Shown here in pieces: positions 4,579 to 56,659 of a stretch of 64,000 nucleotides of DNA. Source of the DNA: Alphaproteobacteria bacterium (GTDB taxonomy: Bacteria > Pseudomonadota > Alphaproteobacteria > CAAHEQ01 > UBA3637); the NCBI GenBank assembly GCA_045536135.1, contig JAZSNA010000003.1, positions 45,108 through 109,107 of the forward strand, written 5' to 3'. The notes beneath the pieces are model-generated. The model saw only the letters and a list, made by a program, of their open reading frames with translations. It was not told the origin of the DNA and ran no database searches. Numbering within the stretch: the stretch's first letter is position 1; the number at the start of each line of letters is the position of its first letter. The position numbers and the translations under genes were made by a program.

Positions 4579-4654
4579 GCCCAGATAGCTCAGTTGGTAG
4601 AGCAAGGGACTGAAAATCCCTGTGTCGGCGGTCCGATTCCGTCTCTGGGCACCA
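4579..4654 (+). tRNA. tRNA-Phe (anticodon GAA)
   Basis: 76-nt cloverleaf matching E. coli tRNA-Phe (gcccagatagctcagttggtagagc...ctGAAaatccc...ggtccgattcc...gggcacca). CCA is encoded, followed by a T-run. Confidence 0.9.
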
Positions 4655-4676: not shown

Positions 4677-5828
4677 ATGAAGAAAAAGTTCAACTTTGAT
4701 ATTTCTCCGAAGTTTATTGAGTACTTTAATAAGCGTGTTAAACAGGTTTTTTTCTACACAACCGAGGCTTGCCATTTGCGTTGTAAACAGTGTTTATATA
4801 AACCGAATTTATTTTTTCAAATGAAACAACGGAAAGAAATTCCTCTTAATGAGATGATAAAACTGGCAGAAGATTTTCACAAGCTTGGCGCGATAAAGGC
4901 AACTATTATGGGTGGCGAACCATCTAAATATGGGGACCCTGAGCACCGTGATTTATGTAAGTTTATCGCTGAGCTCAGAAAAATGGGCTACACGTACATA
5001 CGAATGGATACAAATGGACAATTTGAAGATGATATGTTGGCTTTGGATGGTATGAAGAAACTTGATGAAGTGTCCTTCAGTATTGATGGTTACTCTCCAG
5101 AAACAAACGACATATTACGTGGAGAAGGAGCTTTTGAAAAATGTAGGGATAATATTAAACGTGCCATTGAGCTAGGCTATACCGTGGATATTACTTCCTG
5201 TATTCACCCAGTTCTATTGAAGAAAGATAAAAAAGGACAGCTAAATATTGAGAAAATGATTTTATTCGCACAGGATTTAGGAGTTAGAAATATTAATTTC
5301 CATGTCTTGTTTAAACATGGTTTTCCTATGGATACTTGGACAGAAGATACAGCCGTAACACCTGAAAAATGGATTGTTGCACGTGATATCCTGGCAGATG
5401 CAGTTACCAAAAACAAGTATAAGATCCATGTGCGAATTCCATATCACTTTATTTCGCGAGAAGAATTCGATAAAAATCCAAAATATTACGGATATTGTCC
5501 TGCAAAATTAGGGGAAAGGTTGTTAGTACATCCAGACGGACAAATTAGAATTTGTTCTGGGTTGATTAGTTCAAAATACTGTGTAGCCCACTACTTTGAT
5601 GGAAAAATCATATGGGAAGAAGGGTATTTAAATGAATTGAATGATCATGATTTAAATAACCCTACTCCTTGCACAAACCAAAGCAAAGGAATGCAGTGCG
5701 GCAATTATTGTCCTTTATGCTTTTCTTTCAAACCTTATCAAAAAGAGTATGTTTGGAAAAACAAACTAAAGTGGGAAGAAACTAATGATCAGAAATGCAA
5801 CATTTTCGATAACAAATCGATGCAATAG
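4677..5828 (+). CDS. radical SAM enzyme with C-terminal SPASM/twitch-like Cys cluster
   Basis: Has the CHLRCKQC (CxxxCxxC) 4Fe-4S/SAM motif and GGEPS SAM-binding motif. The C-terminal third is Cys-rich (CPAKL...C...C...CTNQSKGMQCGNYCPLC), consistent with auxiliary clusters. Confidence 0.7.
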   Translation: MKKKFNFDISPKFIEYFNKRVKQVFFYTTEACHLRCKQCLYKPNLFFQMKQRKEIPLNEMIKLAEDFHKLGAIKATIMGGEPSKYGDPEHRDLCKFIAELRKMGYTYIRMDTNGQFEDDMLALDGMKKLDEVSFSIDGYSPETNDILRGEGAFEKCRDNIKRAIELGYTVDITSCIHPVLLKKDKKGQLNIEKMILFAQDLGVRNINFHVLFKHGFPMDTWTEDTAVTPEKWIVARDILADAVTKNKYKIHVRIPYHFISREEFDKNPKYYGYCPAKLGERLLVHPDGQIRICSGLISSKYCVAHYFDGKIIWEEGYLNELNDHDLNNPTPCTNQSKGMQCGNYCPLCFSFKPYQKEYVWKNKLKWEETNDQKCNIFDNKSMQ

Positions 5829-6723
5829 TCGCTGTAAAATATGCAATATATGGAAAACAACAGATTTTTCTGATGAGCTCTCATTGTCTCAAATCAAGAA
5901 ATTAATTTCTAAACCTTATTTTAATGATCTTGATACGATTAGTATTACTGGAGGCGAACCTTTTTTAAGAAAAGATTTAACAGAGATTATTAAACTGGCT
6001 AAGAATATATTACCTAAACTTAAACGCATATTTTTAAATACAAACGCAACGATTATTGAGCCAGTCCTCGATGTATGCAAATTATGCACTTCTCTCTTTT
6101 CAGAGACAATTTTGAGTATTTCTTTGGATGGGACTGAAACAGTTCATAATAGCTTAAGGGGTATAAATAATTATAAAAATGTTTTACTGTTAATTGACAG
6201 AGCTTCTTCAATAAAAGGATTGAAGGTTTCGCTGTCCATGACAATTTCTAAAGGAAATTGTAGTTATGACGAACTTCAACATGTCCATAAATTAGCTCAG
6301 AAATACAATACAATGTTCAGTTTTAGGTTTGCAGATATGTCAAAGACATATTATAAAAATGAAGATATAGATTTGTCTCTTTCTGAAGAGGAGAAGCATA
6401 TTGTATCTAAATACATTAGTGAAAATGGTTTAGACAATGAGTTTCTTGCAGTATTAAAGGAATATATAGAGACAAAGAAAGTTCCATTTATAGTTGATGA
6501 GAACGGGTGCAATCATTGTCTTGCAGGGAAGGAGTTCATCTTCATTCACCCAAATGGATCTGTTTCCCCTTGTTTATATAGTTCACAAAAAATAAATATA
6601 GATTCAAAGCCGCCTCAAGAAGTCGAGCTCGGAAAATTTGAAAGATGTCCATGTTGCACGGACTGTGCAATTTATCCAATTTTAGAATATAAAAAAAACT
6701 TAGAAAAGGAGCAAAAATGTTAA
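5785..6723 (+). CDS. radical SAM enzyme with SPASM-like domain (second of a tandem pair)
   Basis: Has the CNSRCKIC (CxxxCxxC) and ITGGEPF motifs, plus C-terminal CNHC...C...CPCCTDC. It overlaps the upstream rSAM gene by 44 nt in a different frame. Confidence 0.7.
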   Translation: MIRNATFSITNRCNSRCKICNIWKTTDFSDELSLSQIKKLISKPYFNDLDTISITGGEPFLRKDLTEIIKLAKNILPKLKRIFLNTNATIIEPVLDVCKLCTSLFSETILSISLDGTETVHNSLRGINNYKNVLLLIDRASSIKGLKVSLSMTISKGNCSYDELQHVHKLAQKYNTMFSFRFADMSKTYYKNEDIDLSLSEEEKHIVSKYISENGLDNEFLAVLKEYIETKKVPFIVDENGCNHCLAGKEFIFIHPNGSVSPCLYSSQKINIDSKPPQEVELGKFERCPCCTDCAIYPILEYKKNLEKEQKC

Positions 6724-7391
6724 ATAAAATAAAACAAATTCTATCGGAAAAACTAAAGTCCTCTTCGCATGATTTGACTCATACATATCGGGTTTACCGG
6801 AATTGTTTAAAAATCGCAGAAAGCGAGCCTGATATAACGGTTGATATGAACGTATTAACGGTGGCGGCTTTATTACATGATATTGCTCGACCTGATGAAG
6901 ATCTTCACCCTGAATTAAAAATTGATCACGCAATTTTAGGATCAGAAAAAGCCTATGAAATTTTGATTGGTTTGGGTGCTGAAGAAGCATTTTCAAAAAA
7001 AGTCTCTGACGCTATTAAAACACATCGTTTTAGAGGAGGATTAATACCAGAGTCGATTGAAGCAAAAATTTTATTTGACGCAGATAAGCTAGATATTATA
7101 GGAAACATTGGGATTGCTCGCTCTTACATGATCGCAGGAGAGCAAAAGCAAGATATTTACAATGATTGTGATATCAACGAGTATATTAAGTTAAATTTAG
7201 TTGGGGGTGTCGCCTCTGGTAAAATTATAGATCTAAAAAAACATACACCGAATATTGAATTTCTAACAAAGGACGTAAATATTCCTGATCGTATGTTCAC
7301 TAAAACTGGACGATCCTTAGCGCAGAAGCGAATTGAACGTATGAAACAGTTTTTTGAAATCTTGAAGCAAGAAATTGATGGGAATGCATAA
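6717..7391 (+). CDS. HD-domain phosphohydrolase
   Basis: An H...HD...D arrangement (THTYRV...LLHDIARPDE...FDADKLD) matches the HD superfamily metal-dependent phosphohydrolase fold. Confidence 0.6.
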   Translation: MLNKIKQILSEKLKSSSHDLTHTYRVYRNCLKIAESEPDITVDMNVLTVAALLHDIARPDEDLHPELKIDHAILGSEKAYEILIGLGAEEAFSKKVSDAIKTHRFRGGLIPESIEAKILFDADKLDIIGNIGIARSYMIAGEQKQDIYNDCDINEYIKLNLVGGVASGKIIDLKKHTPNIEFLTKDVNIPDRMFTKTGRSLAQKRIERMKQFFEILKQEIDGNA

Positions 7392-7393
7392 CA

Positions 7394-8341
7394 ATGGAAT
7401 ATACAAAAGAATTTAATGAGTTAAAAGGTAATTTTACGCAATTTATTACTCTTCAAAAGGGGTATAAATTAGAACCTACTTTACCATTAGATTCTAAGGT
7501 TGATCCGACTGTTTTTTTAATAGGATCTTGTACCAATGTCTTTAAACCGTATTTCTTATCAAATAGGATTGAAGATTCAGGTCATGCTTTAGTCCAATCA
7601 GGTATTAACACTAAACAGCTTTCTATCACTGATATGAGTCAGCCACAACGCTTTTATTCAACATATACTATTCTTGGACTCTTACAAAGTGTTAAAAAGT
7701 TTTCAACAATATTGGATGACTCTTACGAGTTTATAACAAAAATTGCAGGGCTTGACCCTACCAAAATAAGTTTGAAAGTTAACCCGAAAGATACCGATTT
7801 TATTAGCTGTATTTCAAAAAAATACCCCTTTTTTATGGGGGACGAAAATTGTGGAAGACACCATTTTGGAAAATACAACGGAATTCCGATACAAGGACGC
7901 CACATTTCTTTTTACTATAATAATCAAAATATTGCAACGAGTTCTGTTTATGAATATAACGGTGAAGCCTTAGGAGTGGAAACAACTACAACAGCACAAA
8001 GTTTAATTGCGGCAAGAAATGGATTCAAAAACACCATGGAAGCCTCTATTTTAAATGACAAGTATGTTGCAAAAACACCACAAGAATTTCATTATTATGA
8101 CTGTGTTACAGCAATTGCAGAATTAGTACATTCAGGTATTCGTCCAAATTCTTCTCATGTACCTGGTCGCATATTAAAAAAGTACTTTTATAGGATTGCC
8201 ACGTTGGAGAAAGAACTTGGTATATCCCCTTCATATACGAAAGAATTGGTAGATTTTTATATTGAAACATCTTATCCTCCAAAAATTGTTCAATCAAGGG
8301 CTATTCCTTCACAGGTTCGAGATACATGTCACCAAAGATAA
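7394..8341 (+). CDS. stand-alone alanyl-tRNA-synthetase catalytic-core homolog (class II aaRS-like)
   Basis: By-eye alignment to the E. coli AlaRS N-terminus: F.QFI..KGY......LP.D.KVDPTVFLIGSCTNVFKPYFL versus F.DFF.SKGH...[28 protein letters not shown]. Also FFMGDENCG versus FWQMGDTGPCGPC. There is no editing or C-Ala domain. Confidence 0.45.
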   Translation: MEYTKEFNELKGNFTQFITLQKGYKLEPTLPLDSKVDPTVFLIGSCTNVFKPYFLSNRIEDSGHALVQSGINTKQLSITDMSQPQRFYSTYTILGLLQSVKKFSTILDDSYEFITKIAGLDPTKISLKVNPKDTDFISCISKKYPFFMGDENCGRHHFGKYNGIPIQGRHISFYYNNQNIATSSVYEYNGEALGVETTTTAQSLIAARNGFKNTMEASILNDKYVAKTPQEFHYYDCVTAIAELVHSGIRPNSSHVPGRILKKYFYRIATLEKELGISPSYTKELVDFYIETSYPPKIVQSRAIPSQVRDTCHQR

Positions 8342-9222
8342 TTTCTGAAATAAGAAAAGAACCATATTATAACGATCTTACATCACGTGGATATGAATAT
8401 TTAGGATATGGCTATATGCATGTCATTTTTGAAAAAAGTGATGTAATTTATAAAATCGTTCGTTCAAAATTTAAGAATTTTGATAGAAAATATGATTATG
8501 AATTCGAAAAAAATGTTTTGGATATGATGAGACTACATGGTTTTCCAACACCTAACGTACTTAAAATCTATGAAAAAGGAGACTTCTTACCTGATTTTCT
8601 TGTTTTAGCAGAAGAAAAAATATCCGGAAGCGTTAAAAATGAAAAAACACTGAAAATTGAAAATATTGAACAGATTATAGCCAGCCAAGAAAAAGCTCAC
8701 GCAATAAAATTTCCCTTTTTTGGACAACTGTATGATAAAAATTTACAATTCGAAACATGGAATGAATATTTGCTATATCTTATAAAAAGGGCTGGTAAAG
8801 CCGCCTCAATTTTTAGTATAGAATTTGATGAAAATGCCATAAAGGATTATTTTTCTAATTATTATACGTATACAAAGGAACCGTGTTTTTTAATACTAGA
8901 TCCAAATGAAGAAAATTATATCTTTGATGATCATGATAAATTGTTAGGCATTATAGATATAGATCATCCTATCTCTTTTGACCCGCTCTATGAGTGCGCT
9001 GTTTGTTTGTATGCAAAAAAATATATTTTTGATATGATGCGGATAATTAAACCAAATTATTTTAATAATCATTTAGAAACAATAAAAAAATATGCTGTTA
9101 TTCATTCCTTGGCCGATATTCTTTTTTTATATGATAAAGATAAAGAATATTTTCATAATGAAATACAAACATGCGCAAAGAATGTAGTCAAGTTTCATAA
9201 ATTCTTAAAGAGCTTTACATGA
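8326..9222 (+). CDS. protein-kinase-like (APH/choline-kinase fold) phosphotransferase
   Basis: Brenner-like catalytic segment LILDPNEENYIF (D-x4-N) followed by IIDIDH (D-x-D metal-binding), as in aminoglycoside/Kdo/heptose kinases. Confidence 0.45.
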   Translation: MSPKIISEIRKEPYYNDLTSRGYEYLGYGYMHVIFEKSDVIYKIVRSKFKNFDRKYDYEFEKNVLDMMRLHGFPTPNVLKIYEKGDFLPDFLVLAEEKISGSVKNEKTLKIENIEQIIASQEKAHAIKFPFFGQLYDKNLQFETWNEYLLYLIKRAGKAASIFSIEFDENAIKDYFSNYYTYTKEPCFLILDPNEENYIFDDHDKLLGIIDIDHPISFDPLYECAVCLYAKKYIFDMMRIIKPNYFNNHLETIKKYAVIHSLADILFLYDKDKEYFHNEIQTCAKNVVKFHKFLKSFT

Positions 9223-9232
9223 AGGGAAAAAG

Positions 9233-10753
9233 TTGATGACAAAATTTTCTGTTAGAGTATCTGAATTTGAAAAAAGCTCTCTATCACAAAAACAAATAGA
9301 GAAAATGTTTTCAATTTTAGAAAAAAAAATAAAAAGATTCCAAAAAGTAAAATTCTCTCTAATTGAGGAAATGCAAAAAGAAAATTTGAGTTATCGATTG
9401 AAAACTATCGGAAAGAATTTTGTAATTGTAATTACGCGAGAACCATCAAATGCCGAGGAAATCTGTATAGGATATCCATTTCCAATTCATTCCAGATTAA
9501 ATAAACTTTCTTCCCCAGAGAAATTCAAAATAAAGTACTTTTTACGAGGCCAAATTCTTAGAAATGCACAAAAAAGTCACTTTATTAAAAAATTGCGCGA
9601 TTTAAAATTATCAGTCAATGTATCCGAGTTAAATTCTTTGAAAGAATTTTCCGAAAAATTATCAATCTGTATGAAAAAACTTAAGCCAGATGTTCTAAAT
9701 TATATTGATTTATACCATTTTTTGGGTGATTCTTTTCTCAGTACATATATGTTAGATGCTTTTGCACGCGATTATTCTATTCCCAAGAAAATAATATACA
9801 GCCAAAGCTATAAACACCTAAATGGATTTTACAATGCAAAGCCTTTAGAAAATCTCGGGCAATCACCAGGAAAAAGTATCTTCATATTCTCCGATTTATT
9901 GGATATAGATGATGCTTTTGTTCAAAATTCATTTTTTGACAGTCAAAAGGATGGATTATACATTATAAATAGTAGAAATTGTTTTTTTACCAAAGTAGAA
10001 AAAAATGTACATGTATTTTCTCTTAAAGGAAAAGAAGACGTCCTATTGACTCAAAATAATATTTTTGATTACATGAAGAATTGTATCAGACCTTTTGTAA
10101 AGAAGACTTCATTTCCGAATATAAATCCTTTACATAAGCAACCTTTAGGTAGGATTTATATTAATCCGTATTCTTCTCTAGCTCAAAAATCTTTAACAAT
10201 TGAGGAAATAAAAAAACTAATAGATCATATTCGGCTTATTATGCCAGAAATGGAAATTTATATTCCATATGGATATAATGATTACACAAAAAAATACACT
10301 CAAAAAATTAAGGAAAAAGTATCAAAAATCAATTTAATTGAAGATAATGGTATTTATGACTTATATAAGAGGATAAAAGATAACGGTATTGACCTTGTTA
10401 TTACTGTTGACACCGCTCTAACCCATATTCTAACAAAATATGGTATAAGAAACATAGTTTTATATAAGGATGGTTTTTGGGATCAAAAGTCGTTACAATC
10501 GTTAGTGGCAGAATCACCCATTGCTTTCTGTAGTCAATATTATTGGCAGTACCCGTTTATTTTGAAATGTGAAAATGACATAGAAAAGATATGTGAGTTA
10601 ATTGGTTTCTTTTACAGGATTTCAGAACGTCCTGTGATTCCAGATTTAGAACTCGAGCAATCCTGCTTCAGTCAAGCTACAAACAAAAGAATAAGAAAGA
10701 TTAGTAACAAACTGGGATGTAATAAGAAATTAACTCAAGAATTTTCTAGTTAG
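9233..10753 (+). CDS. hypothetical 506-aa protein with GT9 (heptosyltransferase)-like C-terminal segment
   Basis: DLVITVDTALTHILTKYGIRNIVLY resembles the GT9 donor-binding motif (lvi.nDSGpmHlAaAlg.P.valfG). The N-terminal ~350 aa has no recognisable motif. Confidence 0.3.
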   Translation: MMTKFSVRVSEFEKSSLSQKQIEKMFSILEKKIKRFQKVKFSLIEEMQKENLSYRLKTIGKNFVIVITREPSNAEEICIGYPFPIHSRLNKLSSPEKFKIKYFLRGQILRNAQKSHFIKKLRDLKLSVNVSELNSLKEFSEKLSICMKKLKPDVLNYIDLYHFLGDSFLSTYMLDAFARDYSIPKKIIYSQSYKHLNGFYNAKPLENLGQSPGKSIFIFSDLLDIDDAFVQNSFFDSQKDGLYIINSRNCFFTKVEKNVHVFSLKGKEDVLLTQNNIFDYMKNCIRPFVKKTSFPNINPLHKQPLGRIYINPYSSLAQKSLTIEEIKKLIDHIRLIMPEMEIYIPYGYNDYTKKYTQKIKEKVSKINLIEDNGIYDLYKRIKDNGIDLVITVDTALTHILTKYGIRNIVLYKDGFWDQKSLQSLVAESPIAFCSQYYWQYPFILKCENDIEKICELIGFFYRISERPVIPDLELEQSCFSQATNKRIRKISNKLGCNKKLTQEFSS

Positions 10754-11360
10754 ATTCTTTGTAGAGTTGTGGATTTAGGTTCGGGTCATTGTACATTTTA
10801 AAAGAATGATAAAGTTTTATTTGTTTTCTGCCCTCAACACACTCTTTAATAAGAGATTTGGTTGCTCTTATTAAATCTTTTTGTTGTTGGGATAGAACCT
10901 TTAATTTTGTTTTACATGACATTAGATGGTCAGCTGATACGTCTTTTCTGATTGTTTGTTCTTTCATATGATAAATTTTCAAATTTAAAATAGATAATCT
11001 ATCAATAATCATGCCTATAGTTTCTGTGTGTACAGGCACATTTTGTTTAATCTGAGTACAAATCAGAGGAACAAAAATCGTATCTATTTTTTCAAAATAA
11101 TTCGTGCGTTCTTGGTTTAGTACATCAATTTTTCGTTTGCATTCAACTAGTTTTTTATCGGAGATGTCTTTTCTTCTCACAATATCTTCCGTATGCCATA
11201 ATAAATAATTTGAAGCATGATTTGCTTTAACCGTAAGTAATAGACTGTTTCCACTATACTTGATCGCCTTTTGATATCCAATTTTATGCCAATGCTTAGT
11301 TAATTCCGTTTGTTTTAATACGATTGAATCTATTAATCTATATAATTTTTGCATATTCAT
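10746..11360 (-). CDS. hypothetical protein (only minus-strand gene in the island)
   Basis: 204-aa ORF convergent with the upstream operon (8-nt stop overlap). No motif recognised. It could be a regulator or immunity-type function. Confidence 0.3.
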   Translation of the reverse strand: MNMQKLYRLIDSIVLKQTELTKHWHKIGYQKAIKYSGNSLLLTVKANHASNYLLWHTEDIVRRKDISDKKLVECKRKIDVLNQERTNYFEKIDTIFVPLICTQIKQNVPVHTETIGMIIDRLSILNLKIYHMKEQTIRKDVSADHLMSCKTKLKVLSQQQKDLIRATKSLIKECVEGRKQIKLYHSFKMYNDPNLNPQLYKESN

Positions 11361-11452
11361 TTTATATTCCTTTTGATTTTATCAGTCTTAGATGAACAGT
11401 AACAAACAATTTAAAAAAAATCAACTTTTTTTAATGGTTTCGGCTAAACCTC

Positions 11453-11481
11453 TTGACAATAAAAGATAAAAAAAGTATTCT
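11453..11481 (+). promoter_or_regulatory. sigma70-like promoter TTGACA-17-TATTCT for the distal half of the island
   Basis: TTGACA at 11453-11458 and TATTCT at 11476-11481 with a 17-nt spacer. A strong AAAGGAGG RBS precedes the ATG at 11508. Confidence 0.4.
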
Positions 11482-11507
11482 TAAGGCAATAATCCAAAGG
11501 AGGAAAC

Positions 11508-12437
11508 ATGTCAATCTTTGCATTTAAACTTCGAAACCGTTTTATAAAACCATACGCAACCGGATATCTGCCCACACAGGATGGACATCAAATTTTTTAT
11601 CAAGAAGTTGGCAATCCAAAAGGGGAACCAGTCATAGTGTTTCATGGTGGCCCCGGAAGTCAATGCTATCCATTTTTTGCTTGCACATTTAATCTAAAAA
11701 AACAACGAGTTATCATGTTCGATCAACGCGGATGTGGCAAATCTAAATTCGATAAGCCGCTCTATAAAAATACTTCACAAAATACGATAAATGACGCTAT
11801 AAGACTTCTGGAACATTTAAATATTTCTGAAAAAATAGTTTGCACAGGAGGTTCTTGGGGGTCAACATTAGCGATATTATTTGCAGAAACATATCCTCAA
11901 AAAGTCAAAAAGATAATTGTAAATTGTATATTTTTAGGTCGAAAAAAAGATATAGAAAATATGACGCCGATTGCTTCATATTTTTACCCAGATGCTGTCG
12001 AAACCGTTAAGAAAGCTGCAAATGGAAAGGATTTGGATAGATATTATAGTGAATTGTTAGCTTCAAATAAAAGATCTGACCAAGAAAGGGCTGTCCAGTA
12101 CTATAAAAAACTTGAAAAAACAGCATGTGATGCCTCTTTGATAGTGGATTTTTCAAAAGGCGAAATATCCGATAAAGATATTTTGAAATTCCAAATTTTT
12201 ATGCACTATAAATACAATAATTATTTCTTGAAAGACAATCAATTACTAGTCAATGCTAAGAATATAAAAAATATTCCTACAGAAATTTATCAAAATCGCT
12301 TAGATTTCTGTTGTCCACCATATCAAGCTTATGAATTACATAAAGCTTTACCTAAAGCAAAATTCTATCTGATTCCTGATCGTGGACATGGAAGCGATAT
12401 GCTCTTTTATGAAATGTACAAAAATAATTTGGCGTAA
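11508..12437 (+). CDS. alpha/beta-hydrolase, proline iminopeptidase (S33)-like
   Basis: HGGPGS oxyanion motif and GGSWGS nucleophile elbow (G-x-S-x-G), with a C-terminal His, as in prolyl aminopeptidases. Confidence 0.55.
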   Translation: MSIFAFKLRNRFIKPYATGYLPTQDGHQIFYQEVGNPKGEPVIVFHGGPGSQCYPFFACTFNLKKQRVIMFDQRGCGKSKFDKPLYKNTSQNTINDAIRLLEHLNISEKIVCTGGSWGSTLAILFAETYPQKVKKIIVNCIFLGRKKDIENMTPIASYFYPDAVETVKKAANGKDLDRYYSELLASNKRSDQERAVQYYKKLEKTACDASLIVDFSKGEISDKDILKFQIFMHYKYNNYFLKDNQLLVNAKNIKNIPTEIYQNRLDFCCPPYQAYELHKALPKAKFYLIPDRGHGSDMLFYEMYKNNLA

Positions 12438-12452
12438 TTATAGGGGTTTTAC

Positions 12453-13370
12453 TTGAAGAAAAATAAAACATACAAAGAAATATGCCTTAGCGAATGTGAT
12501 AATGGGATAATTGGACATTTTTTATTGTGGGTTTATAAAAAATTTAATTATCCCCGTTTTTTATGGACACTTAAATTACGTTATTTAATTTTAGAGTATC
12601 TTGCGCGCAAATATGCCCTTTCTTCAATGGGAAAGCATTGTGAGATGCGAGCAAACTATATAAAAGAACTCTATAAAAATTGTAAAAAAGGACTATTTCC
12701 TAAAGGGCATTACACTTACAATAACGCTTTTACAAAGAAATATTTTTCATCTAAAAATAGGGGCTCTATTTTCCTAGTTATGGATGTTTTCTTTGATCAC
12801 AAAAAGAACGTTGAATACGGTAATTATTTATTAGAGGTTTTTGACCCTATTCATCGTCTAGACCTACAAAATTTTTACAAGAAATGGGATTCAAATGCTA
12901 AAAACATTAATTTTTATCTGTGGCTGGAAAAAAACTATCAGAGCTCACATATCCCGGAAATTGAATACTTAAGTGAATCTGAAAAAAGAAAGTGTGAACT
13001 TGTTAATCGTTTAGGAAAACTCTATGAAAAGAGAACAGGCAAACCTCTTACCACTGAACCGGATAAGGAATATATATTCATTTTGGATGATCAAAATCGA
13101 TTGTATGGAATTTATTCTTCAGAGCCTATTCGTCACACATCGCTATCATTAGGGAAACCAGTAATCTGCGTGGGTGATATTTCTGTTCGAAAAGGACAAC
13201 TTCTTAAAATATCTTTAGACAGTGGGCATTATCATCCAAAACTTCAGACATTAGTAGCTTTTAACAATTTTATTCAAATTCCAAAGAAAACAGTTATAGA
13301 ATTCTATGATGGTAATATGAAAACATCATCGACATGGAATGTAATCTCACATCAGATTGATATAGTTTGA
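12453..13370 (+). CDS. hypothetical protein
   Basis: 305-aa ORF with a TTG start and an AGGGG RBS. No recognisable motif. Confidence 0.3.
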   Translation: MKKNKTYKEICLSECDNGIIGHFLLWVYKKFNYPRFLWTLKLRYLILEYLARKYALSSMGKHCEMRANYIKELYKNCKKGLFPKGHYTYNNAFTKKYFSSKNRGSIFLVMDVFFDHKKNVEYGNYLLEVFDPIHRLDLQNFYKKWDSNAKNINFYLWLEKNYQSSHIPEIEYLSESEKRKCELVNRLGKLYEKRTGKPLTTEPDKEYIFILDDQNRLYGIYSSEPIRHTSLSLGKPVICVGDISVRKGQLLKISLDSGHYHPKLQTLVAFNNFIQIPKKTVIEFYDGNMKTSSTWNVISHQIDIV

Positions 13371-13428
13371 CTTATAAAACAAACTATTATATAATCTCCA
13401 TAGCTTTAATAGTAAAAGGAGAGTATTT

Positions 13429-14220
13429 ATGATTAGATATTACTGTAGTGGATTTGATATAAACAATGCTTTTGGACATGGTCTTGGGGCAATGTTTAAG
13501 TCTGAATTAAAAGACACAAAAAGCATTGTTTATATTCCTGGCGGCTATGATAAAATTGAAAAGGCAAAAACAAAGTATGTCCCGATTTTTACTGAGCATT
13601 TTAGAAACTCTGGAATTGAATTTGAAACAGTACACTTACTTACTCCTGAGTTAGGATCAAGACGGGCAAACGAGCTGTGTAAAAACGCCGATTTTATTAT
13701 GCTAATGGGAGGATGTCCATTCCAACAAAAGAAATTATGTGAAAAACTGGAGATCATGGACCAATTAAAAAACTACAATGGCATTATGTTAGGCCTCAGC
13801 GCGGGAGCGATGCTGATGTCGAAACATGTTATAGTTACGCCTTGCAGTGAGGAGTATCCAGATTTTCGTGTGGAAGATGGTTTAAATCTTGATAGTATAT
13901 CAATATTTCCACATAATAACACAACTCTACTTGAATATCCGGATAAACTAATATCAGGCGATGAAACATATAAAAAATCCGATTTGCTGACCGTATCCAA
14001 ACAATACGGCCCATTTTATTTATTACAAGATAATCCTAAACCAAATGGGACAACAGATGTAAGTGCAATAAAATCTTCCAATGGTAAATTAGAATTTTAT
14101 ACGGAAAACGATGGTAGAATTTGGCTGGTCGATAAAGATGTTCACCTGGTATGTGATCCTAAAAAATCACACCACAATAACGAATTATTGCGTTTTGCAG
14201 GGATAAAAGAAAGAGAATAA
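13429..14220 (+). CDS. peptidase S51 (peptidase E / cyanophycinase-like) family protein
   Basis: MLMGGCPF...GIMLGLSAGAMLM matches the S51 GG-x-F...G-x-S-A-G nucleophile region. Confidence 0.4.
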   Translation: MIRYYCSGFDINNAFGHGLGAMFKSELKDTKSIVYIPGGYDKIEKAKTKYVPIFTEHFRNSGIEFETVHLLTPELGSRRANELCKNADFIMLMGGCPFQQKKLCEKLEIMDQLKNYNGIMLGLSAGAMLMSKHVIVTPCSEEYPDFRVEDGLNLDSISIFPHNNTTLLEYPDKLISGDETYKKSDLLTVSKQYGPFYLLQDNPKPNGTTDVSAIKSSNGKLEFYTENDGRIWLVDKDVHLVCDPKKSHHNNELLRFAGIKERE

Positions 14221-15216: not shown

Positions 15217-15430
15217 GATGTAAACTCCATATCATTTCTCGTAAATCGTCAATTTTAGTTTCCAGTCGGGCGATATGCGTCTGAGTTGCATACTCTTTGG
15301 CCACCGCTACTTTGAATTCGTTTAACTCTCTTTCAACACTTTTGATTTCCCTCCGTTGTTCTCCCAGTTTATAAAAAAACCAACCAAAGGCTGGCACACA
15401 AATGATTTGTAGGAATTGTATCCAATCCAT
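15176..15430 (-). CDS. small membrane protein (holin/antiholin-like or moron)
   Basis: 84 aa with an N-terminal TM helix followed by a coiled coil. It lies between the J-like gene and the endolysin. Confidence 0.25.
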   Translation of the reverse strand: MDWIQFLQIICVPAFGWFFYKLGEQRREIKSVERELNEFKVAVAKEYATQTHIARLETKIDDLREMIWSLHHEPNTTAKRHSKQ

Positions 15431-15439
15431 GTTTTTCTC

Positions 15440-17662
15440 CTATTGATGTACTCGGCTATCTTCAATAACCGCTGTTATTTCTACCTTGGTGGAGCGTGGA
15501 TGTATGCCCGTTACACGTGCAAGTACACTCCATTTATCGGCGGTTCCAAAGGCAAAATGCGTTCGTTCTGCATCTGTGCCGGTTAAGATGTCAATGTCCG
15601 GTTCTTCCGATAAGATAACTTCGGTCGTCAATGCTCCGGGAGTGACGACAAAAGGTCCTGATAAAGACCCGTTTTTCTTTCGTAATGCCAAATAATGTGT
15701 TTGACCTTCTTCAAACTTGACCGGTTCGGACAGGCTTAGTGTCAGACCTTTCTTTTCCGTCACTTCTCCGCCTTGGCCCCATTTAGCCATATCGTGAGTG
15801 ATAGCGATCAGATCTCCATAACTCGGCACCAGTCCTTCCAGTTCTGTTGTGAAGTTGACAATACGTCTGCGGTATCGGTTGGCCAACGCCATATAAGTTG
15901 CTTCTCTTAATGCTTGGTCTTTGTTTGTGCATCCAAATAGCTCAACTGTCGCTGTTTTATCTGAAGATGAACCTTCAAAAGAGCCAACGACTTCGGAGGT
16001 TTTCCAAGTCTTTTCCGAAAAATACTGAACACAAACGCTGTCGGCTGTGTCTTCGGACGGCATCACATATTGTATAGATAGGCTGTTTTTTACAATATTT
16101 CGTGGTCCGAAAAGTGCTACAGGTATGTTTTTCGGCTCGTCCCGGACGAAACGAACAATACCACCTTGAATAAAAGGAATAGCTCGTCCAACTCGGGCTG
16201 TTCGGGATAAGGCTTCATAAACCGTCAGTTTGCTATCAAACACGCCGTTAAAGGTATCGCCTCGGCTGTTCCACGTCTGGTCAAGGTTATAAAGAGCTTG
16301 CAGATCTATGGATTTATCAGCAAGTCCGGCACCGTATGATGCTCTTAAGATATCTGCCAACACCCAAGCCACAGAACGGGTCGCTACCGGCGATGACCAC
16401 CCGGAAGTCGGAGACCAAGTAGGCAGTTTTCTTGTGACGATACAGTTGACCATACGTGACGAACGCTGTGATAAGTTATCGGTGGCACGCATCGTAATGG
16501 CAAGCAATGTCACATTCCCGTAGTCCTTATCCGATACGATGTAGCCTTTGGCTGAACCCCAACGAATTTCATGTCCGGCACGTGAAGATGTGTCTTTGGC
16601 ATCTAACCGGGTAGCTCGGACCTCATATCTGCCGGTTGTTACCGAATAGGTATAGGTTTGATACATAGCGTTATGGTTATTGCTTGTGATACTTTCTGTT
16701 CCAAGGGTTACCCAGTCACCCAGCGCTTTATCTTCATCATCTATTCGTCTGGCATCGATACGCCATTGAATGGTTTTATTGGCCATGGTTCCATTGTCGT
16801 TTGCGTAATAACAGCCTCGTTGAAATGCCACATCAATTTCAATTTTATTGATAACGCTTTCGGTCGGGTTTAACACAAACGGACCACAAATGGTATCCTT
16901 TAACAGTTCCTGACCGGCCACTTCATTGGAAGTTACCACATCTTCTTCAAAAAGCGTGTTTTTACCTCCGGGTGGAATGATTTGATAGGTTATTTCTTCA
17001 AATGAGCTGATCGGCGTGTCCTCAATTCGTATCTGTTCGACATTGTATTCGCCTTGACCTATGCAATGAAGCTGATAGACGTATTGCTCGTTGTTTGCAT
17101 ATTTATAATAAGGCTGACTGGCAAAATCCGGATATATCAGGTGGCGGCCGTAAATAACAGGGATTGGATTACCAAGGCGAGCCTGATTACCTTGCGCTTG
17201 TAAGGAATAAGTCGGACTTTGAGTCAGGCTTGATGTTGTCATTCCATTAAGCGATGCTTTAGGTGTTGGCACAAAGGTATTAATTAAAATTCCGCCACCG
17301 ACAGAAACAGCCGCCGCAGCAACGCCACCCCAAAAGGCACCATAAGCAGCTCCCACAGCACCGCCTGTATAAACAGTAGCAACAATTAAGGCCACCGTTA
17401 GAACAATTTGCAAAGGGTTTGAACTTTTGCCTCCACCACCCTGTGGCAGAGCTACAAAACTAACCACCGCTTTTTGATGTAGAGTAATGTTCCAGTCTTT
17501 TCTGAGTTTTGCCACACCATCAACCAAACAGACTGTTGGTCGGCTTAAATCAATTTTTTGCTCTTTAACGATTTGCCAAACGGTTTGTTTTCCGGGCAAG
17601 GCTTTGCTTATCCGTCCCTTGTTTGGATTAAACGGATTTGTTAGATAATTAAAATAAACCAT
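15440..17662 (-). CDS. tail tip / host-specificity protein (lambda J-like position)
   Basis: 740 aa, the last large tail gene after the K-like gene. It has a Gly/Ala-rich hydrophobic N-terminal segment. Confidence 0.5.
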   Translation of the reverse strand: MVYFNYLTNPFNPNKGRISKALPGKQTVWQIVKEQKIDLSRPTVCLVDGVAKLRKDWNITLHQKAVVSFVALPQGGGGKSSNPLQIVLTVALIVATVYTGGAVGAAYGAFWGGVAAAAVSVGGGILINTFVPTPKASLNGMTTSSLTQSPTYSLQAQGNQARLGNPIPVIYGRHLIYPDFASQPYYKYANNEQYVYQLHCIGQGEYNVEQIRIEDTPISSFEEITYQIIPPGGKNTLFEEDVVTSNEVAGQELLKDTICGPFVLNPTESVINKIEIDVAFQRGCYYANDNGTMANKTIQWRIDARRIDDEDKALGDWVTLGTESITSNNHNAMYQTYTYSVTTGRYEVRATRLDAKDTSSRAGHEIRWGSAKGYIVSDKDYGNVTLLAITMRATDNLSQRSSRMVNCIVTRKLPTWSPTSGWSSPVATRSVAWVLADILRASYGAGLADKSIDLQALYNLDQTWNSRGDTFNGVFDSKLTVYEALSRTARVGRAIPFIQGGIVRFVRDEPKNIPVALFGPRNIVKNSLSIQYVMPSEDTADSVCVQYFSEKTWKTSEVVGSFEGSSSDKTATVELFGCTNKDQALREATYMALANRYRRRIVNFTTELEGLVPSYGDLIAITHDMAKWGQGGEVTEKKGLTLSLSEPVKFEEGQTHYLALRKKNGSLSGPFVVTPGALTTEVILSEEPDIDILTGTDAERTHFAFGTADKWSVLARVTGIHPRSTKVEITAVIEDSRVHQ

Positions 17663-21794: not shown

Positions 21795-22277
21795 TTATAA
21801 ATCCTCTATTTGTTTTGTACAGGTCTCATGGACGTATTCGTGTAAGCGGTTAACTGCCAACACCAATTTATCGTAATCGCAGTCTAATAAAATGTTTAAT
21901 GCACCTTCAGACAAGGTCGGACGGTCTCGGATTTCCAGTTCAGAGGTTATTTCCCACAAATAGCCGTTTAGGAGTTTTGCCTCGAACTGTTGAGTAAAGC
22001 GAGCCTCTTGTTCCAGTAGTCCTAAACCACCAAGCAATGTGATGTAAAACCATTCGGCTCCTTCCTTTGCGTGGTATTTATACCATGCCTCGAAAAGAGA
22101 AAATTGCTCTCGGTTCATCACCCACCGCACCGAAATTTTAGACGGCGTTTGAGTATAACGCCGCCTTTGTCTTGCTGGACCTGATTCCATGTCGGTTCGC
22201 ACAATGGCTTCTCCGGGCTTAATTGCATATCCTTCCGTTGTCGGATAAGGCAGATGTTGAGGAAAATATACTGTCAT
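21795..22277 (-). CDS. minor tail protein (lambda M-like)
   Basis: EQFSLFEAWYKYHAKEGAEWFYITL resembles lambda M EATVLESFLEEHGGWKSFLWT. It lies immediately downstream of the tape measure gene. Confidence 0.4.
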   Translation of the reverse strand: MTVYFPQHLPYPTTEGYAIKPGEAIVRTDMESGPARQRRRYTQTPSKISVRWVMNREQFSLFEAWYKYHAKEGAEWFYITLLGGLGLLEQEARFTQQFEAKLLNGYLWEITSELEIRDRPTLSEGALNILLDCDYDKLVLAVNRLHEYVHETCTKQIEDL

Positions 22278-24892
22278 CGATAACTCCCAAATGCCGGATT
22301 AAGGGCATAACGTTGTTCCAAAATAGGCGATAAACCTTCGCCCTTAGATATGTTTTTACCAATTGTGCTTTCAATTTGCTCAACAATTACATCAATGGAC
22401 ACGTTTCCACTGGCATCTTTATTTGCCGTTGCTGAAGCCTTTGTGCCTGATGAGTTATTGTGAACATTAACATTAACATTGACGGGATTTTTTGAGTTTA
22501 ACTCTGTCCCGAGTGCGTCCATTTGTCCTTTTGTGAAGACGGTTTCTCCACGTTTTGCGATGATCGGGATTTCGTCTCCGACCAAACCGCCGGTATGATA
22601 GCGAGTAGCACCTTCAAAAACATCAGGACTAATCTGCCGAGAAGATAAAGTATCCGTACCAATTACACCTCCTGTATGAGCCATCGGCACGCCAAAGTAT
22701 CCCATTATCCCACTCATGATGGGTTTGATAACGGCATATTGAATGGCCATCCGGACCATACCTTCAACAATAGAATTAACAAAATCCGAAAAACTAGCTT
22801 TGCCTGTCATAACGAACTCGGTCAGAGTGTCTTCCATGGCGGTAAACGAGTTTTTTACAATGTTCTCGGTTGCTTTTGCCATGTCGGTTACATCAGCATA
22901 CGAGCTTTGCAAGCTGCGAGTGAGACCGTCTTTCCAATTGGTTGAGTTTTTCAAGGCGGCATCACTTGCTTTTTTGACCATATCATCATAAACACGATTA
23001 ACATCAGCTTTGAAATCTTCATACCCGGCCTTAGTGCTATCAAGGTTCGCCAAAGCATTATCACGCCATTCGGCCGCTTTTTGCATAGCCTGATCATATG
23101 GCTCTTGTAATTCAAAGACTTTCTTTTTTATGTCCTCTATGTTTTTCTCATAGGCTGAAGTATCAACTGTCGGCAGTTGTTCTGTCTGTTGTTCCAGTTC
23201 TTTTTTAGGTCGAAGCTCCGGATTGTTGATGTATTCCAGTTCCTTTCGGGCATCCCAAGCATCTTGTCGAGCTGCTTTTAATAACAGGAGTTTTTCCTGA
23301 ATGGCATCGGCTTGTGGCTTGAAGTCCGGATATTCCGCTGCCAGCTCCCAAACCTTTTTCTCATATTCATCAAGGTTATACTTTGATTCAGAGAGGATTT
23401 CAGCCAAATCGTTTGCAAAAATCTCGTATTCATCAAGCATAAAGTTCGGAGCATGACGTTTGAAAAACGAGATGCCGCCGGTGTTTTTTAGCTCTTTTTC
23501 AAGGTCTTTGACGTTCTTTTCTGCGATTTTTAGCTTGTGCGACCATTCGGCAATGGCTTGGTTCTTCGACAGAGTATTCATATAAGTCGAAGTTTCCTTG
23601 ACGGTTTCTGCCATTTGGTCTTTGAGTTTTTGCAATGTGTCGGCATGATCATTGGCGGCTCGCTTTGCCACATCATGACTATCCACGAGCTTATAAAGAC
23701 CATAAGCCAGTGCTAAAACAAGGCCGGCAGGACCACCAAGAAGAGCCAATGCACCTTTCAAAACATTGGCCGCTACAGTTGTTGCATACATCTGAACGGC
23801 GGCCAGTTTAGAAACCTGCCACATCATACGAAGACCGAGTGTCGCCGTTGCTCCAGCTGTCCCAGTTCCTAAAAGTGCGGCATTTAAGGATAAAACTGAA
23901 CCTTTAAGAAGTGTCCAAGTTTTGATAATAGCGGCAGAACCCAAACGAACAGTTAAGAGCGTGATAATCGGTTCGATATTATTTGCCAAGGCAAAAAAGG
24001 CTTTGCCTGCCACATTTACAGCCGTTGCCAAAGCTCCACCGATAGATTTTGCGGTACTGTTTGAACCGGATACAAGCGTGTTAAATTGTTCCAACACACC
24101 TTTAATGGCATCATTTAGTCCGCTTTCACCAATGGTTCGGGCAACTTTTGCCATGGCATCTTCAATGTTTGACATCGTTCCGCCCATGGTGTTCATCTGT
24201 TCAGCCATAGCTCCACCGAAGTTAATGTTTCCGATAGATCGCAAATATCGTTCGATTTCGGTCGCATTTTTAGCCACTTCTGTTGTAACGCCTTGGAAGA
24301 TGAACTTAACCGTTTCACCTTCAACTTTGGCTTTGATACCAAAGGTTTTCAGTCTTTCAAACTCGCCAACGGTTGCAGAAGTTACTGCAGAAACAAACTC
24401 CAAGATGTTCTTACCAAAGGCTGATGCCGTATTACCATAAGAGGTTAAGGCTTCCATTGAGGGTTCCAAGCCCATCGCCTTTAATCGGATAAAGCTATCA
24501 ACGATTTCATCAAGTTGATACGGGGTTGATGTGGCAAAGTCTTCAATTAAAGAAAATGCTTCCTTTGCCGCTTTTGCAGATCCGGTCACAGTTTTTAATG
24601 ATCCGGATAACCTTTCAAATTCGGCATTAACTCCGACAATTGACTTAAATGTTGAGGTTAAACCACGTAAACCGAGGTAGGCTCCGGCAAGACCTGCCGC
24701 TTGTTTTAGTACGCCATTAAAGGTTTTGGCCGTTTCATTTATGACTTTCAGGTTGTCATTGGCCGGTGTGATGACATTTGTAATCTGACGAAAAGCCTTT
24801 GTGCCGTCCGTCCCAATGGACTTAAACTCCTGACGGACTTTATCACCGCCAACTGCCTCAAGTCTGATGGATAGTTTCTTTGCTGCTCCCAT
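22274..24892 (-). CDS. tail tape measure protein (lambda H-like)
   Basis: 872 aa, Ala/Gly/Lys-rich and largely helical. It follows the G/GT chaperone pair. Confidence 0.8.
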   Translation of the reverse strand: MGAAKKLSIRLEAVGGDKVRQEFKSIGTDGTKAFRQITNVITPANDNLKVINETAKTFNGVLKQAAGLAGAYLGLRGLTSTFKSIVGVNAEFERLSGSLKTVTGSAKAAKEAFSLIEDFATSTPYQLDEIVDSFIRLKAMGLEPSMEALTSYGNTASAFGKNILEFVSAVTSATVGEFERLKTFGIKAKVEGETVKFIFQGVTTEVAKNATEIERYLRSIGNINFGGAMAEQMNTMGGTMSNIEDAMAKVARTIGESGLNDAIKGVLEQFNTLVSGSNSTAKSIGGALATAVNVAGKAFFALANNIEPIITLLTVRLGSAAIIKTWTLLKGSVLSLNAALLGTGTAGATATLGLRMMWQVSKLAAVQMYATTVAANVLKGALALLGGPAGLVLALAYGLYKLVDSHDVAKRAANDHADTLQKLKDQMAETVKETSTYMNTLSKNQAIAEWSHKLKIAEKNVKDLEKELKNTGGISFFKRHAPNFMLDEYEIFANDLAEILSESKYNLDEYEKKVWELAAEYPDFKPQADAIQEKLLLLKAARQDAWDARKELEYINNPELRPKKELEQQTEQLPTVDTSAYEKNIEDIKKKVFELQEPYDQAMQKAAEWRDNALANLDSTKAGYEDFKADVNRVYDDMVKKASDAALKNSTNWKDGLTRSLQSSYADVTDMAKATENIVKNSFTAMEDTLTEFVMTGKASFSDFVNSIVEGMVRMAIQYAVIKPIMSGIMGYFGVPMAHTGGVIGTDTLSSRQISPDVFEGATRYHTGGLVGDEIPIIAKRGETVFTKGQMDALGTELNSKNPVNVNVNVHNNSSGTKASATANKDASGNVSIDVIVEQIESTIGKNISKGEGLSPILEQRYALNPAFGSYR

Positions 24893-31933: not shown

Positions 31934-32172
31934 TAGAATGCCACCTTTATCATACGTCTGCGAGAGGTTGTCGTTTTACCTTCGGCCACCGCAATTTGAG
32001 ATTTTAGACTTGAGATATAACTTTCCAAAGCCGCTCGTGAGGTTTGGTTGTAGGTCACCGAACCGAAATTGCCGACATTGACCGAAACTTCCTTGGCTCC
32101 GATGAGCAGTTTATGGTAGGCTTCTTCTGCCTCAGCCAATCGTGTTTTGAGTAATTCTTTATCTATAACCAT
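31933..32172 (-). CDS. head-tail joining protein (lambda W-like)
   Basis: 79 aa, helical. It lies between the TerL and portal genes. Confidence 0.35.
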   Translation of the reverse strand: MVIDKELLKTRLAEAEEAYHKLLIGAKEVSVNVGNFGSVTYNQTSRAALESYISSLKSQIAVAEGKTTTSRRRMIKVAF

Positions 32173-35020: not shown

Positions 35021-35056
35021 AAAAAAGGTGCGGTTAACTGCCGCACCTTTGTTTTT
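35021..35056. terminator. bidirectional rho-independent terminator
   Basis: aaaggtgcgg-ttaactg-ccgcaccttt is a perfect 10-bp stem flanked by an A-run on the 5' side and a T-run on the 3' side. It sits between convergent genes. Confidence 0.6.
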
Positions 35057-37115: not shown

Positions 37116-37219
37116 GAAAATCCTCACTTTTGATATAAAACTTTTAGTATTCTATGAAATGCCAAAATAAAAAGCAACAAAAATTAAGTTTTTTGTTACT
37201 TCAATGCCACAATTTGACA

Positions 37220-39050: not shown

Positions 39051-39123
39051 CTAGGCTTTCTCTGCCTTTCCTTACAATTACATTGTTGCTTGGAATTCGA
39101 AATTTATCCAGTTAATTCTGCAT
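39051..39123. repeat. 73-bp direct repeat, copy 2
   Basis: See copy 1. It lies between the ParB-MTase stop and the next gene start. Confidence 0.55.
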
Positions 39124-45850: not shown

Positions 45851-45851
45851 T

Positions 45852-46832: not shown

Positions 46833-46909
46833 TGGTCGGGGTGACACGACTTGAACGTGCGACACCTTGCTCCCAAAGCAAGTACTCTACCAGGCTGAGC
46901 TACACCCCG
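46833..46909 (-). tRNA. tRNA-Pro (anticodon UGG)
   Basis: 77-nt cloverleaf on the minus strand: cggggtgtagctcagcctggtagagtacttgctTTGGGAgcaag...ggttcaag...caccccgacca. CCA is encoded. Confidence 0.85.
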
Positions 46910-53249: not shown

Positions 53250-53260
53250 AAATAACTCCT

Positions 53261-53300
53261 GAATAAAAAAAGGGGGTAAGGCAGAACCCTGCCTCACCCC
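53261..53300 (-). terminator. rho-independent terminator after the capsid gene
   Basis: On the minus strand: ggggtgaggcag-ggttc-tgccttaccccc followed by TTTTTTT. Confidence 0.45.
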
Positions 53301-53338
53301 GCAAAAAAGGAAAGAAAATAAAAAAATCAGATTATCGG

Positions 53339-56658: not shown

Positions 56659-56659
56659 A

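Follow-up and report, generated by a model that had tools for sequence, protein, structure and literature searches.

What does a protein about one third the size of alanyl-tRNA synthetase (AlaRS), and resembling its catalytic core, do in an operon with radical S-adenosylmethionine (SAM) enzymes? The question is raised by an open reading frame (ORF) at positions 7394–8341 of a 64,000-nucleotide stretch of contig JAZSNA010000003.1 (assembly GCA_045536135.1), referred to here as the window. An earlier note on this DNA had read the ORF as a stand-alone paralog of the AlaRS catalytic core, and family-level profile and structure comparisons confirmed that reading: the protein, named AlaL here, is a stand-alone descendant of the AlaRS aminoacylation domain together with the first tRNA-recognition helices.

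7394..8341, plus strand: AlaL (name given here), 315 aa, stand-alone AlaRS catalytic-core paralog with a rewired active site

The ORF begins with an ATG at a position consistent with its orthologues, and the opposite strand across it is stop-rich. Searched alone, AlaL matches Pfam tRNA-synt_2c with an E value of 3.4e-4 (19.7 bits, below the cut-off of 30.3) and the NCBIfam model TIGR00344 with 2e-3 (16.4 against a cut-off of 457), and a phmmer search of the PDB found AlaRS 9jdn at 0.05. Such single-sequence evidence for AlaRS kinship is weak and suggestive only, and becomes decisive once relatives are added. A four-sequence AlaL profile reached AlaRS at 1.4e-5, and alignment of the 181-sequence family with residues 1–461 of E. 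coli AlaRS (hhalign) gave a probability of 98.8% and an E value of 5.5e-17 over 268 colinear columns, in which AlaL 5–277 corresponds to AlaRS 3–326. The AlphaFold2 model, computed from a 42-sequence family-only alignment and no templates, has a predicted local distance difference test score (pLDDT) of 90.8 and a predicted template modelling score of 0.88; an earlier four-sequence input had reached a pLDDT of only 57. Its best PDB match in Foldseek is AlaRS 1riq (E = 1.1e-13, template modelling score 0.75), the top 19 matches are all AlaRS, and the α-subunit of glycyl-tRNA synthetase (GlyRS) comes next at about 5e-7. AlaL therefore has the class II aminoacylation fold of AlaRS type, and both comparisons, which the earlier note had proposed as a check, returned strong class II hits. 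An origin from GlyQ was considered and ruled out: although it is the nearest subclass relative, E. coli GlyQ has no significant profile similarity to AlaL (hhalign E = 0.049), and its Foldseek value of about 5e-7 compares with 1e-13 for AlaRS.

Set beside the AlaRS catalytic fragments of PDB entries 9jc7, 1riq and 3hxu, AlaL is colinear with E. coli residues 3–326 and shares the motifs DPT...FK, Q-x-C-x-R (in most of the family) and AD...P.N..GR.LKKY. The earlier note had rightly matched the motif DPTVFLIGSCTNVFKPYFL to its AlaRS segment. It had also equated FFMGDENCG with AlaRS FWQMGDTGPCG, which is probably a mis-assignment, as the profile alignment and the model both place FFMGDENCG one strand before FWQMG and identify RHHFG (residues 155–159) as the true counterpart. 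Of the three domains that had been described as lacking, the editing and C-Ala domains are indeed absent, whereas the tRNA-recognition domain is mostly absent but retains its first three helices, to approximately AlaRS residue 326. The protein thus has neither the full domain set of an AlaRS nor scores that reach the curated AlaRS cut-offs. The ratio of non-synonymous to synonymous substitution rates against an orthologue of 75% identity (locus L004) is 0.16, and this purifying selection indicates that AlaL is a functional, selected protein.

AlaL proved to belong to a rare and unnamed family. A word-indexed search of 5.8 billion proteins with AlaL alone as the query found four relatives, a profile search 46, and an exhaustive phmmer search of 1.84 billion representatives 200 (E ≤ 1e-3), almost all of 300–420 aa. 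The family comprises about 200 clusters at 50% identity. Its members occur in Patescibacteria, Bacilli/Mollicutes-like gut bacteria, Alphaproteobacteria and high-GC bacteria, and are named ‘hypothetical protein’ in their source records. Pfam, NCBIfam, PHROG and PADLOC have no model for the family, and in the absence of a Pfam or NCBIfam model it is invisible to annotation. In reference phages the only matches were four weak, partial ones, each to about 40% of the query, in Listeria phage records that carry no annotation; no relative was found in reference plasmids or in two IMG/VR scans, and a BFVD search returned giant-virus AlaRS only. The metagenome scan used an 11-sequence alignment, a 28-sequence version being too diverse. 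AlaRS is the most architecturally conserved of the synthetases, and the free-standing derivatives of it known to us are AcmF, described in 2024, and the AlaX proteins, which correspond to its editing domain. With the AlaL family, the AlaRS catalytic core is seen to have been recruited repeatedly outside translation.

The aminoacylation site has been rewired. Residues are compared below in the E. coli AlaRS literature numbering, verified on the sequence; the ligand roles of Arg68, Phe89, Arg232, Val204 and Asp225 in 9JC7 (E. coli R69, F90, R242, V214 and D235) have been described, as has the stacking of the motif-3 Arg on adenine in an ATP-bound AlaRS structure (PMC12143591).

AlaRS R69 (motif-2 Arg): Asn72 in the window AlaL; family R 77%, K 17%, N 4%
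AlaRS F90: Tyr91; family F/Y
AlaRS W170: His156; family H 87%, W 12%
AlaRS E183: Ser172; family N 76%
AlaRS E209: Asn179; family D 59%
AlaRS N212: Thr182; family N 64%
AlaRS V214: Ser184; family I/V
AlaRS D235: Glu196; family E 73%, D 22%
AlaRS G237: Thr198; family G/A
AlaRS G239: Thr200; family G 78%
AlaRS R242 (motif-3 Arg): Ser203; family T/S, never R

The motif-3 Arg is thus absent family-wide, and the window AlaL also replaces R69, W170, E183, E209, N212, V214, D235, G237 and G239; it has neither the motif-2 nor the motif-3 Arg, and its alanine pocket carries T182, S184, E196, T198 and H156 in place of N212, V214, D235, G237 and W170. Asn72 is a signature common to the seven-sequence clade that contains the window AlaL. 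Other positions are nearly invariant among approximately 180 family sequences, namely Q68 (100%), D37 (99%), K51 (97%), D236 (97%) and R169 (94%), with D133 and G159 as further family-specific near-invariants. The window AlaL is a working protein that is neither an alanyl-tRNA synthetase nor a canonical alanine-activating enzyme.

The closest precedent, compared by its published description, is AcmF, an AlaRS-like aminoacyl-tRNA-dependent transferase of ascamycin biosynthesis (Zheng et al. 2024, ACS Catal 14:3533; review PMC12945691), which was also the only truncated AlaRS-like enzyme found in a literature search. AcmF does not appear among the hits of the AlaL family searches, in collections that do not include its sequence. 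AcmF moves alanine from Ala-tRNA to a nucleoside sulfamate that sits in the former adenylate site; it has lost most ATP-binding residues and carries D232E, keeps Arg93, and does not activate amino acids (PMC12945691). At 370 aa (PMC4257720) it resembles AlaL in being truncated, derived from AlaRS and of similar size, with residues for ATP and alanine activation lost and the D235 position changed to Glu. The equivalents of N212 and D235 lie 13 residues apart in AcmF (E216-Q219-E232) and 14 in AlaL (D179-N182-E196), compared with 23 in AlaRS. The earlier note had expected an AlaRS-derived enzyme in such an operon to be unusual; with AcmF, one characterized precedent already exists (PMC12945691). 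In the ascamycin cluster the transferase is accompanied by an extra aminoacyl-tRNA synthetase (aaRS), by a hydrolase that de-aminoacylates and by a B12 radical SAM enzyme (PMC4257720): AcmD, the additional AlaRS, provides Ala-tRNA and withstands the product, and the hydrolase AcmE removes the alanine. AlaL loci resemble this cluster in its hydrolase, its B12 radical SAM enzyme and, in the largest AlaL clade, its extra aaRS. The two proteins differ in that AcmF has a tRNA-recognition domain, the motif-2 Arg93 and Gln at the N212 position, where the window AlaL has three helices, Asn72 and Thr182, and in that the partners of AlaL are S51 and S66 peptidases, fusions of radical SAM and His_Phos domains, and an APH-like kinase.

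In the window, AlaL lies within a cassette whose features are listed below; the percentages give amino acid identity to the orthologues at L001, a locus from a ruminant-gut alphaproteobacterial metagenome-assembled genome (MAG; L002 is the same locus) in which the cassette adjoins phage capsid genes.

4579..4654, plus strand: tRNA-Phe (GAA), left boundary and likely integration site (ARAGORN, Rfam)
4677..5828, plus strand: radical SAM enzyme 1, 383 aa (Pfam Radical_SAM 1e-16; weak best NCBIfam matches ScmF and MoaA; 79%)
5785..6723, plus strand: radical SAM enzyme 2, 312 aa, MoaA-like, with a faint SPASM/twitch end (Pfam Radical_SAM 1.4e-17; NCBIfam MoaA 6.9e-20, below cut-off; 51%)
6717..7391, plus strand: HD-domain phosphohydrolase, 224 aa (Pfam HD 4.1e-14; NCBIfam PRK10119 phosphohydrolase 1.1e-21, below cut-off; 69%)
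8326..9222, plus strand: APH-type small-molecule kinase-like protein, 298 aa (Pfam APH 2.8e-4, below cut-off; 40%)
9233..10753, plus strand: 506-aa protein with a weak GT9 (heptosyltransferase-like) C-terminal domain (Pfam Glyco_transf_9 5.8e-4 over residues 308–412, below cut-off; 42%)
10746..11360, minus strand: DUF4254 protein, 204 aa, convergent with the upstream operon (Pfam DUF4254 5.6e-50; 45%)
11508..12437, plus strand: α/β-hydrolase, prolyl aminopeptidase-like, 309 aa (NCBIfam pro_imino_pep_1 1.6e-68, 231 bits against a cut-off of 259.75; Pfam Abhydrolase_1 2e-25; no counterpart in L001)
12453..13370, plus strand: 305-aa protein without a Pfam, NCBIfam, PHROG or PADLOC match (no counterpart in L001)
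13429..14220, plus strand: peptidase S51 of the PepE/cyanophycinase/MccG family, 263 aa (Pfam Peptidase_S51 2e-9)

The radical SAM, HD, AlaL, APH-like and GT9-like genes form a tight plus-strand run (4677–10753), which bears out the earlier claim that AlaL is co-operonic with radical SAM enzymes; the association recurs across the family. The start of the kinase-like gene overlaps the AlaL stop by 16 nt, the gene lies directly 3' of AlaL in four of four window-clade loci, and the kinase motifs K37, E61, D192-x4-N197 and D211 are invariant in the four kinase-like orthologues. Likewise, nine of nine S51 proteins linked to AlaL have GG, the GxSxG Ser124 and His162. The approximately 300 N-terminal residues of the GT9-like protein have no family match, and its gene converges with that for DUF4254, a family so far known to us solely through its linkage to heptosyltransferases. 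Eight genes within 4677–14220 (the two radical SAM genes and those for the HD protein, AlaL, kinase-like protein, GT9-like protein, DUF4254 and S51) are common to the window and L001 at 40–79% identity, with AlaL itself at 40%. The 79% identity of radical SAM enzyme 1 (window 4677–5828, L001 7270–8391), against 40–69% for the other genes, may reflect uneven constraint or recent exchange. PHROGs gave no match for the AlaL, kinase-like, GT9-like, DUF4254 or S51 proteins. Nor does any defence-system model in PADLOC-DB v2 match AlaL or the kinase-like protein of the window, or one of the S51 partners; the only hits there are weak ones: a generic pVip similarity of the radical SAM proteins, and one restriction-enzyme model for the AlaL of L009 (E = 2.9e-4).

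To the left of the cassette lie pheT, pheS and tRNA-Phe (4579–4654), and to the right a lambda-like prophage, tail genes first. The G+C content is 29–36% over 4–14 kb, compared with 40–47% in the prophage genes (14–34 kb), and is 36–38% on the pheST side; this low-G+C position between a tRNA gene and a prophage makes the term ‘island’, used for the region before, a fair one. The pheST genes beside the cassette are probably housekeeping genes. The same pheS/tRNA-Phe junction precedes an AlaL and kinase-like pair in L004, which argues that tRNA-Phe is an insertion site with variable cargo. A role for it as a cassette-borne substrate tRNA was considered and rejected: it is absent from L001, present in L004 and L005, and fits an integration site. 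No T-box, riboswitch or other Rfam element was found before the operon in the window or in eight Bacilli-type loci, so that RNA gives no clue to the amino acid used, and a promoter and terminator scan did not rise above shuffled expectation.

Gene neighbourhoods were compared across the family on metagenomic contigs that are partly redundant (L001 = L002, L003 = L011, L004 = L005, L024 ~ L033 ~ L035, L025 ~ L034). In all clades the AlaL stop overlaps the start of the next gene, and the partner varies between the APH-like kinase, a radical SAM–His_Phos fusion and a B12 radical SAM enzyme; in two clades the majority of loci have S51 next to AlaL. Within the window clade of seven AlaL sequences, L004/L005 and L022 have AlaL and the kinase-like gene only. 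At L004 (1784–3742) the pair follows the pheS/tRNA-Phe junction directly, without the two radical SAM genes and the HD gene, which indicates that the cassette halves are separable modules.

The second clade comes from Patescibacteria, Erysipelotrichaceae, ‘Mycoplasma sp. CAG:611’, Tenericutes MAGs, Christensenellaceae and a goat-colon alphaproteobacterium, and in most of its loci AlaL is flanked by S51 and an approximately 713-aa radical SAM–His_Phos fusion. Occasional extras are a B12 radical SAM enzyme, an MBL hydrolase, a 480-aa RelA/SpoT-TGS protein and an RlmN/Cfr-like radical SAM enzyme; one locus, L009, lies beside an integrase and a tRNA-Ser gene. The RlmN/Cfr-like methyltransferase (283 aa, matching RlmN from about model position 70) adjoins the AlaL, fusion and S51 trio in L009 (11111–11962) and L021 (13783–14667). 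A decayed copy occurs in a Tenericutes MAG (L014, 9929–11970), where AlaL is split into ORFs of 187 and 126 aa, the fusion is cut to a 95-aa remnant and S51 is intact.

The largest clade, with the signature R72/N182/E196, was examined at 14 loci, which encode an AsnA-like truncated class II protein (9/14), an S66 MccF-like peptidase (9/14), an Acetyltransf_3 GNAT (6/14) and dimeric GlyRS (6/14, often two copies per locus; a fused GlyRS in L023). Other neighbours are methyltransferases, B12 and other radical SAM enzymes, the RelA/SpoT-TGS protein and dCTP-deaminase-like pairs. In L024 a full-length gene for dimeric GlyRS occurs twice (10947–12320 and 15333–16703), less than 6 kb apart and on either side of an S66 peptidase and a methyltransferase, and such pairs also occur in L029, L033 and L035; one copy looks resistant or dedicated. 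A spare synthetase gene is a well-known sign of self-resistance or supply.

Three of these neighbour types belong to families of immunity enzymes against toxic aminoacyl-nucleotides, of which the paper on MccG lists four: S51 (MccG), S66 (MccF), GNAT (MccE2) and the phosphoramidase MccH (PMC9239234). AlaL loci carry S51 of the MccG family in the window, with its Ser and His intact, and S66 of the MccF family and an Acetyltransf_3 GNAT in the largest clade, a likeness to microcin C systems at the level of family membership only. They differ from those systems in that no gene for the ThiF-like MccB, precursor peptide or exporter was seen, and in that the linkage-forming enzyme would be derived from AlaRS. 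Among the ten cassette proteins there was no Pfam or NCBIfam match to MccB, MccA or exporter families, small ORFs not having been examined for MccA-like peptides.

The AcmF-like residue pattern of the family (the D-to-E preference, loss of the motif-3 Arg and the shortened N212–D235 hairpin), together with the S51, S66, GNAT, GlyRS and radical SAM neighbours, argues for aminoacyl-nucleoside or -nucleotide chemistry. The reading favoured here, to which we give a probability of roughly 40%, is that AlaL may be an aminoacyl-nucleoside-forming or -binding component of a nucleotide-derived toxin pathway, its AlaRS pocket kept as a nucleoside/aminoacyl site. In such a pathway the two MoaA-like radical SAM enzymes and the HD phosphohydrolase would tailor a nucleotide, and AlaL would hold the nucleoside in the adenylate site and couple an amino acid onto it. 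AlaL would most likely receive this amino acid from an already activated donor, such as the aminoacyl-tRNA used by AcmF, and would not itself spend ATP on activating it. Decoration or inactivation of the product could then fall to the GT9-like/DUF4254 pair and the APH-type kinase, which is translationally coupled to AlaL, and the MccG-type S51 peptidase and the prolyl aminopeptidase-like hydrolase could cut the aminoacyl bond, for self-protection or for activation. The duplicated GlyRS genes point to glycine as a candidate amino acid, and the Asp preference of PepE/MccG and the AsnA-like neighbour point to aspartate or asparagine as others. The product would serve either to attack competitors or, carried by a prophage, as a toxin for defence or abortive infection. 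Beyond the fold, the residue pattern and the gene association, every step of this scheme is one that we infer.

Several observations weigh against the toxin-pathway reading for the window itself. Its clade lacks residues that other AlaL proteins share with AlaRS and AcmF, having N72, T182, S184, T198 and T200 instead, so that catalysis, donor and acceptor in the window AlaL are uncertain, and it is only 20–27% identical to the clades with the strongest context, which makes a transfer of function uncertain. The Gln that AcmF has at the N212 position occurs in no AlaL family member, and the idea of an aminoacyl-tRNA donor is weakened because most of the tRNA-recognition domain retained by AcmF is absent from AlaL. 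The window cassette yielded neither an exporter nor an additional aaRS of its own, nor a precursor peptide (small ORFs were not examined for one), and the GT9-like/DUF4254 pair fits a role at the cell envelope equally well.

The strong divergence of the window clade, the greatest of any clade, makes a binding-only role a serious rival, if on balance a doubtful one: AlaL could be a non-catalytic pseudo-synthetase, either a HisZ-like subunit that binds a ligand or sets specificity for the enzyme encoded immediately downstream, or a decoy conferring immunity by sequestering an aminoacyl-nucleotide toxin. The window AlaL has replaced almost all catalytic residues of AlaRS, and the overlap of its stop with the next gene's start recurs in all clades, though the next gene differs and a complex with the downstream partner is putative. 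The near-invariant polar pocket residues (Q68, D37, K51, R169, D236 and E/D196) fit catalysis or precise binding alike, and purifying selection is compatible with both, so neither discriminates. The proposal of the earlier note, a tRNA-independent, ATP-dependent ligase that forms an aminoacyl-adenylate and passes the amino acid to a small-molecule or carrier acceptor, as AsnA, PoxA/EpmA and the amino acid:carrier-protein ligases do, appears improbable. In its favour, the class II core is complete in fold; the majority of AlaL sequences have Arg at the motif-2 position, an acidic residue in place of D235 and equivalents of N212 and of the aromatic residue that stacks on adenine; and the invariant family-specific Arg169 could in principle stand in for the lost phosphate-binding Arg. 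AsnA, EpmA/PoxA, HisZ, the amino acid:carrier-protein ligases and GlyQ are likewise stand-alone class II cores, of about 300 aa, with uses other than tRNA charging, AsnA-like proteins are encoded beside AlaL in the largest clade, and truncated class II paralogs often act as such ligases; AsnA, EpmA/PoxA, HisZ and the carrier-protein ligases, however, derive from other synthetases (AsnRS, LysRS, HisRS and SerRS). The motif-3 Arg is T/S throughout the AlaL family, and the Ala- and ATP-binding residues whose conservation had been proposed as a check are not conserved in the window protein (R69→Asn72, the α-phosphate contact; R242→Ser203, D235→Glu196, N212→Thr182, V214→Ser184 and G237/G239→Thr198/Thr200), leaving the ligase unsupported there; AcmF, the sole characterized AlaRS-derived truncation, does not activate amino acids.

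The remaining explanation we consider, a lysogenic-conversion module of a prophage that modifies lipopolysaccharide or envelope glycan, with AlaL adding an amino acid to a sugar alongside the GT9-like and DUF4254 proteins and a WaaP-like kinase, looks very improbable. It would account for the GT9-like domain and the DUF4254 protein, a family reported to be linked to ADP-heptose heptosyltransferases (PMC9425974), and for the adjoining prophage tail genes in what is probably a proteobacterial host. Both proteins are confined to the window clade, however, the GT9 and APH matches are under the Pfam cut-offs, and the family-wide partners are radical SAM enzymes, phosphatases, S51 and S66 peptidases, GNATs and aaRS copies. 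To return to the toxin-pathway reading, a more specific version of it, which we hold tentatively and consider somewhat unlikely as a whole, is that AlaL could provide an MccB-independent route to aminoacyl-nucleoside or -nucleotide poisons built on a radical-SAM-remodelled nucleotide, here carried as prophage cargo and serving as a weapon or abortive-infection device. On that view the window clade, with neither the motif-2 nor the motif-3 Arg, a pocket lined by Thr/Ser and an obligate kinase partner, would be diverged enough to suggest a new substrate or chemistry. The recruitment of truncated aaRS paralogs to nucleoside natural-product or conflict pathways is known; what is new is an unannotated, taxonomically broad AlaL family. 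Its pairing with MccG-, MccF- and MccE2-type enzymes, spare GlyRS and radical SAM enzymes offers a genome-mining handle for aaRS-targeting nucleoside antibiotics or nucleotide-based conflict systems.

Further features of AlaL loci were observed outside these comparisons. A truncated RelA/SpoT protein of about 480 aa, with HD, synthetase and TGS domains and no C-terminal regulatory domains, lies beside AlaL in two clades (L024 7462–8895, L031 7458–8921, L010 2450–3892, and L017, L019 and L020); its recurrence suggests a pyrophosphokinase step or a tRNA-CCA-sensing role in AlaL clusters. Paired dCTP-deaminase-like genes lie upstream of AlaL in L025, L028 (for example 6024–6602) and L034 and downstream in L032. 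Of these four loci, L025, L028 and L034 also carry PurD, a metallophosphoesterase and a methyltransferase, with DUF6271 in L025 and L034, and S66 occurs in L032 only. A high-GC AlaL in L039 (9165–21008) has as its flanking genes those for an FmdA/AmdA amidase, for an M42 peptidase and for a multi-module non-ribosomal peptide synthetase with condensation, adenylation and peptidyl carrier protein domains and a TubC_N docking domain.

Beyond the cassette, the window contains tandem prophages of two different kinds, one lambda-like (14800–46000) and one T7-like (48700–59700). The lambda-like prophage encodes a tail J-like protein (15440–17662), tape measure (22274–24892), portal (30425–31933) and terminase gpA (32163–34106), and ends near a large serine recombinase (44144–45877) and tRNA-Pro (46833–46909); the T7-like element encodes a terminase (48765–50213), nozzle (50797–52707) and head–tail connector (55240–56658). 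Prophage cargo at 35055–37127, 39104–40372 and 40956–41957 comprises a GmrSD-type restriction enzyme, a fusion of ParB with an N6/N4 DNA methylase and a divergent S-adenosylmethionine synthetase-like gene (weak Pfam match), the last a curious presence so near a radical SAM cassette.

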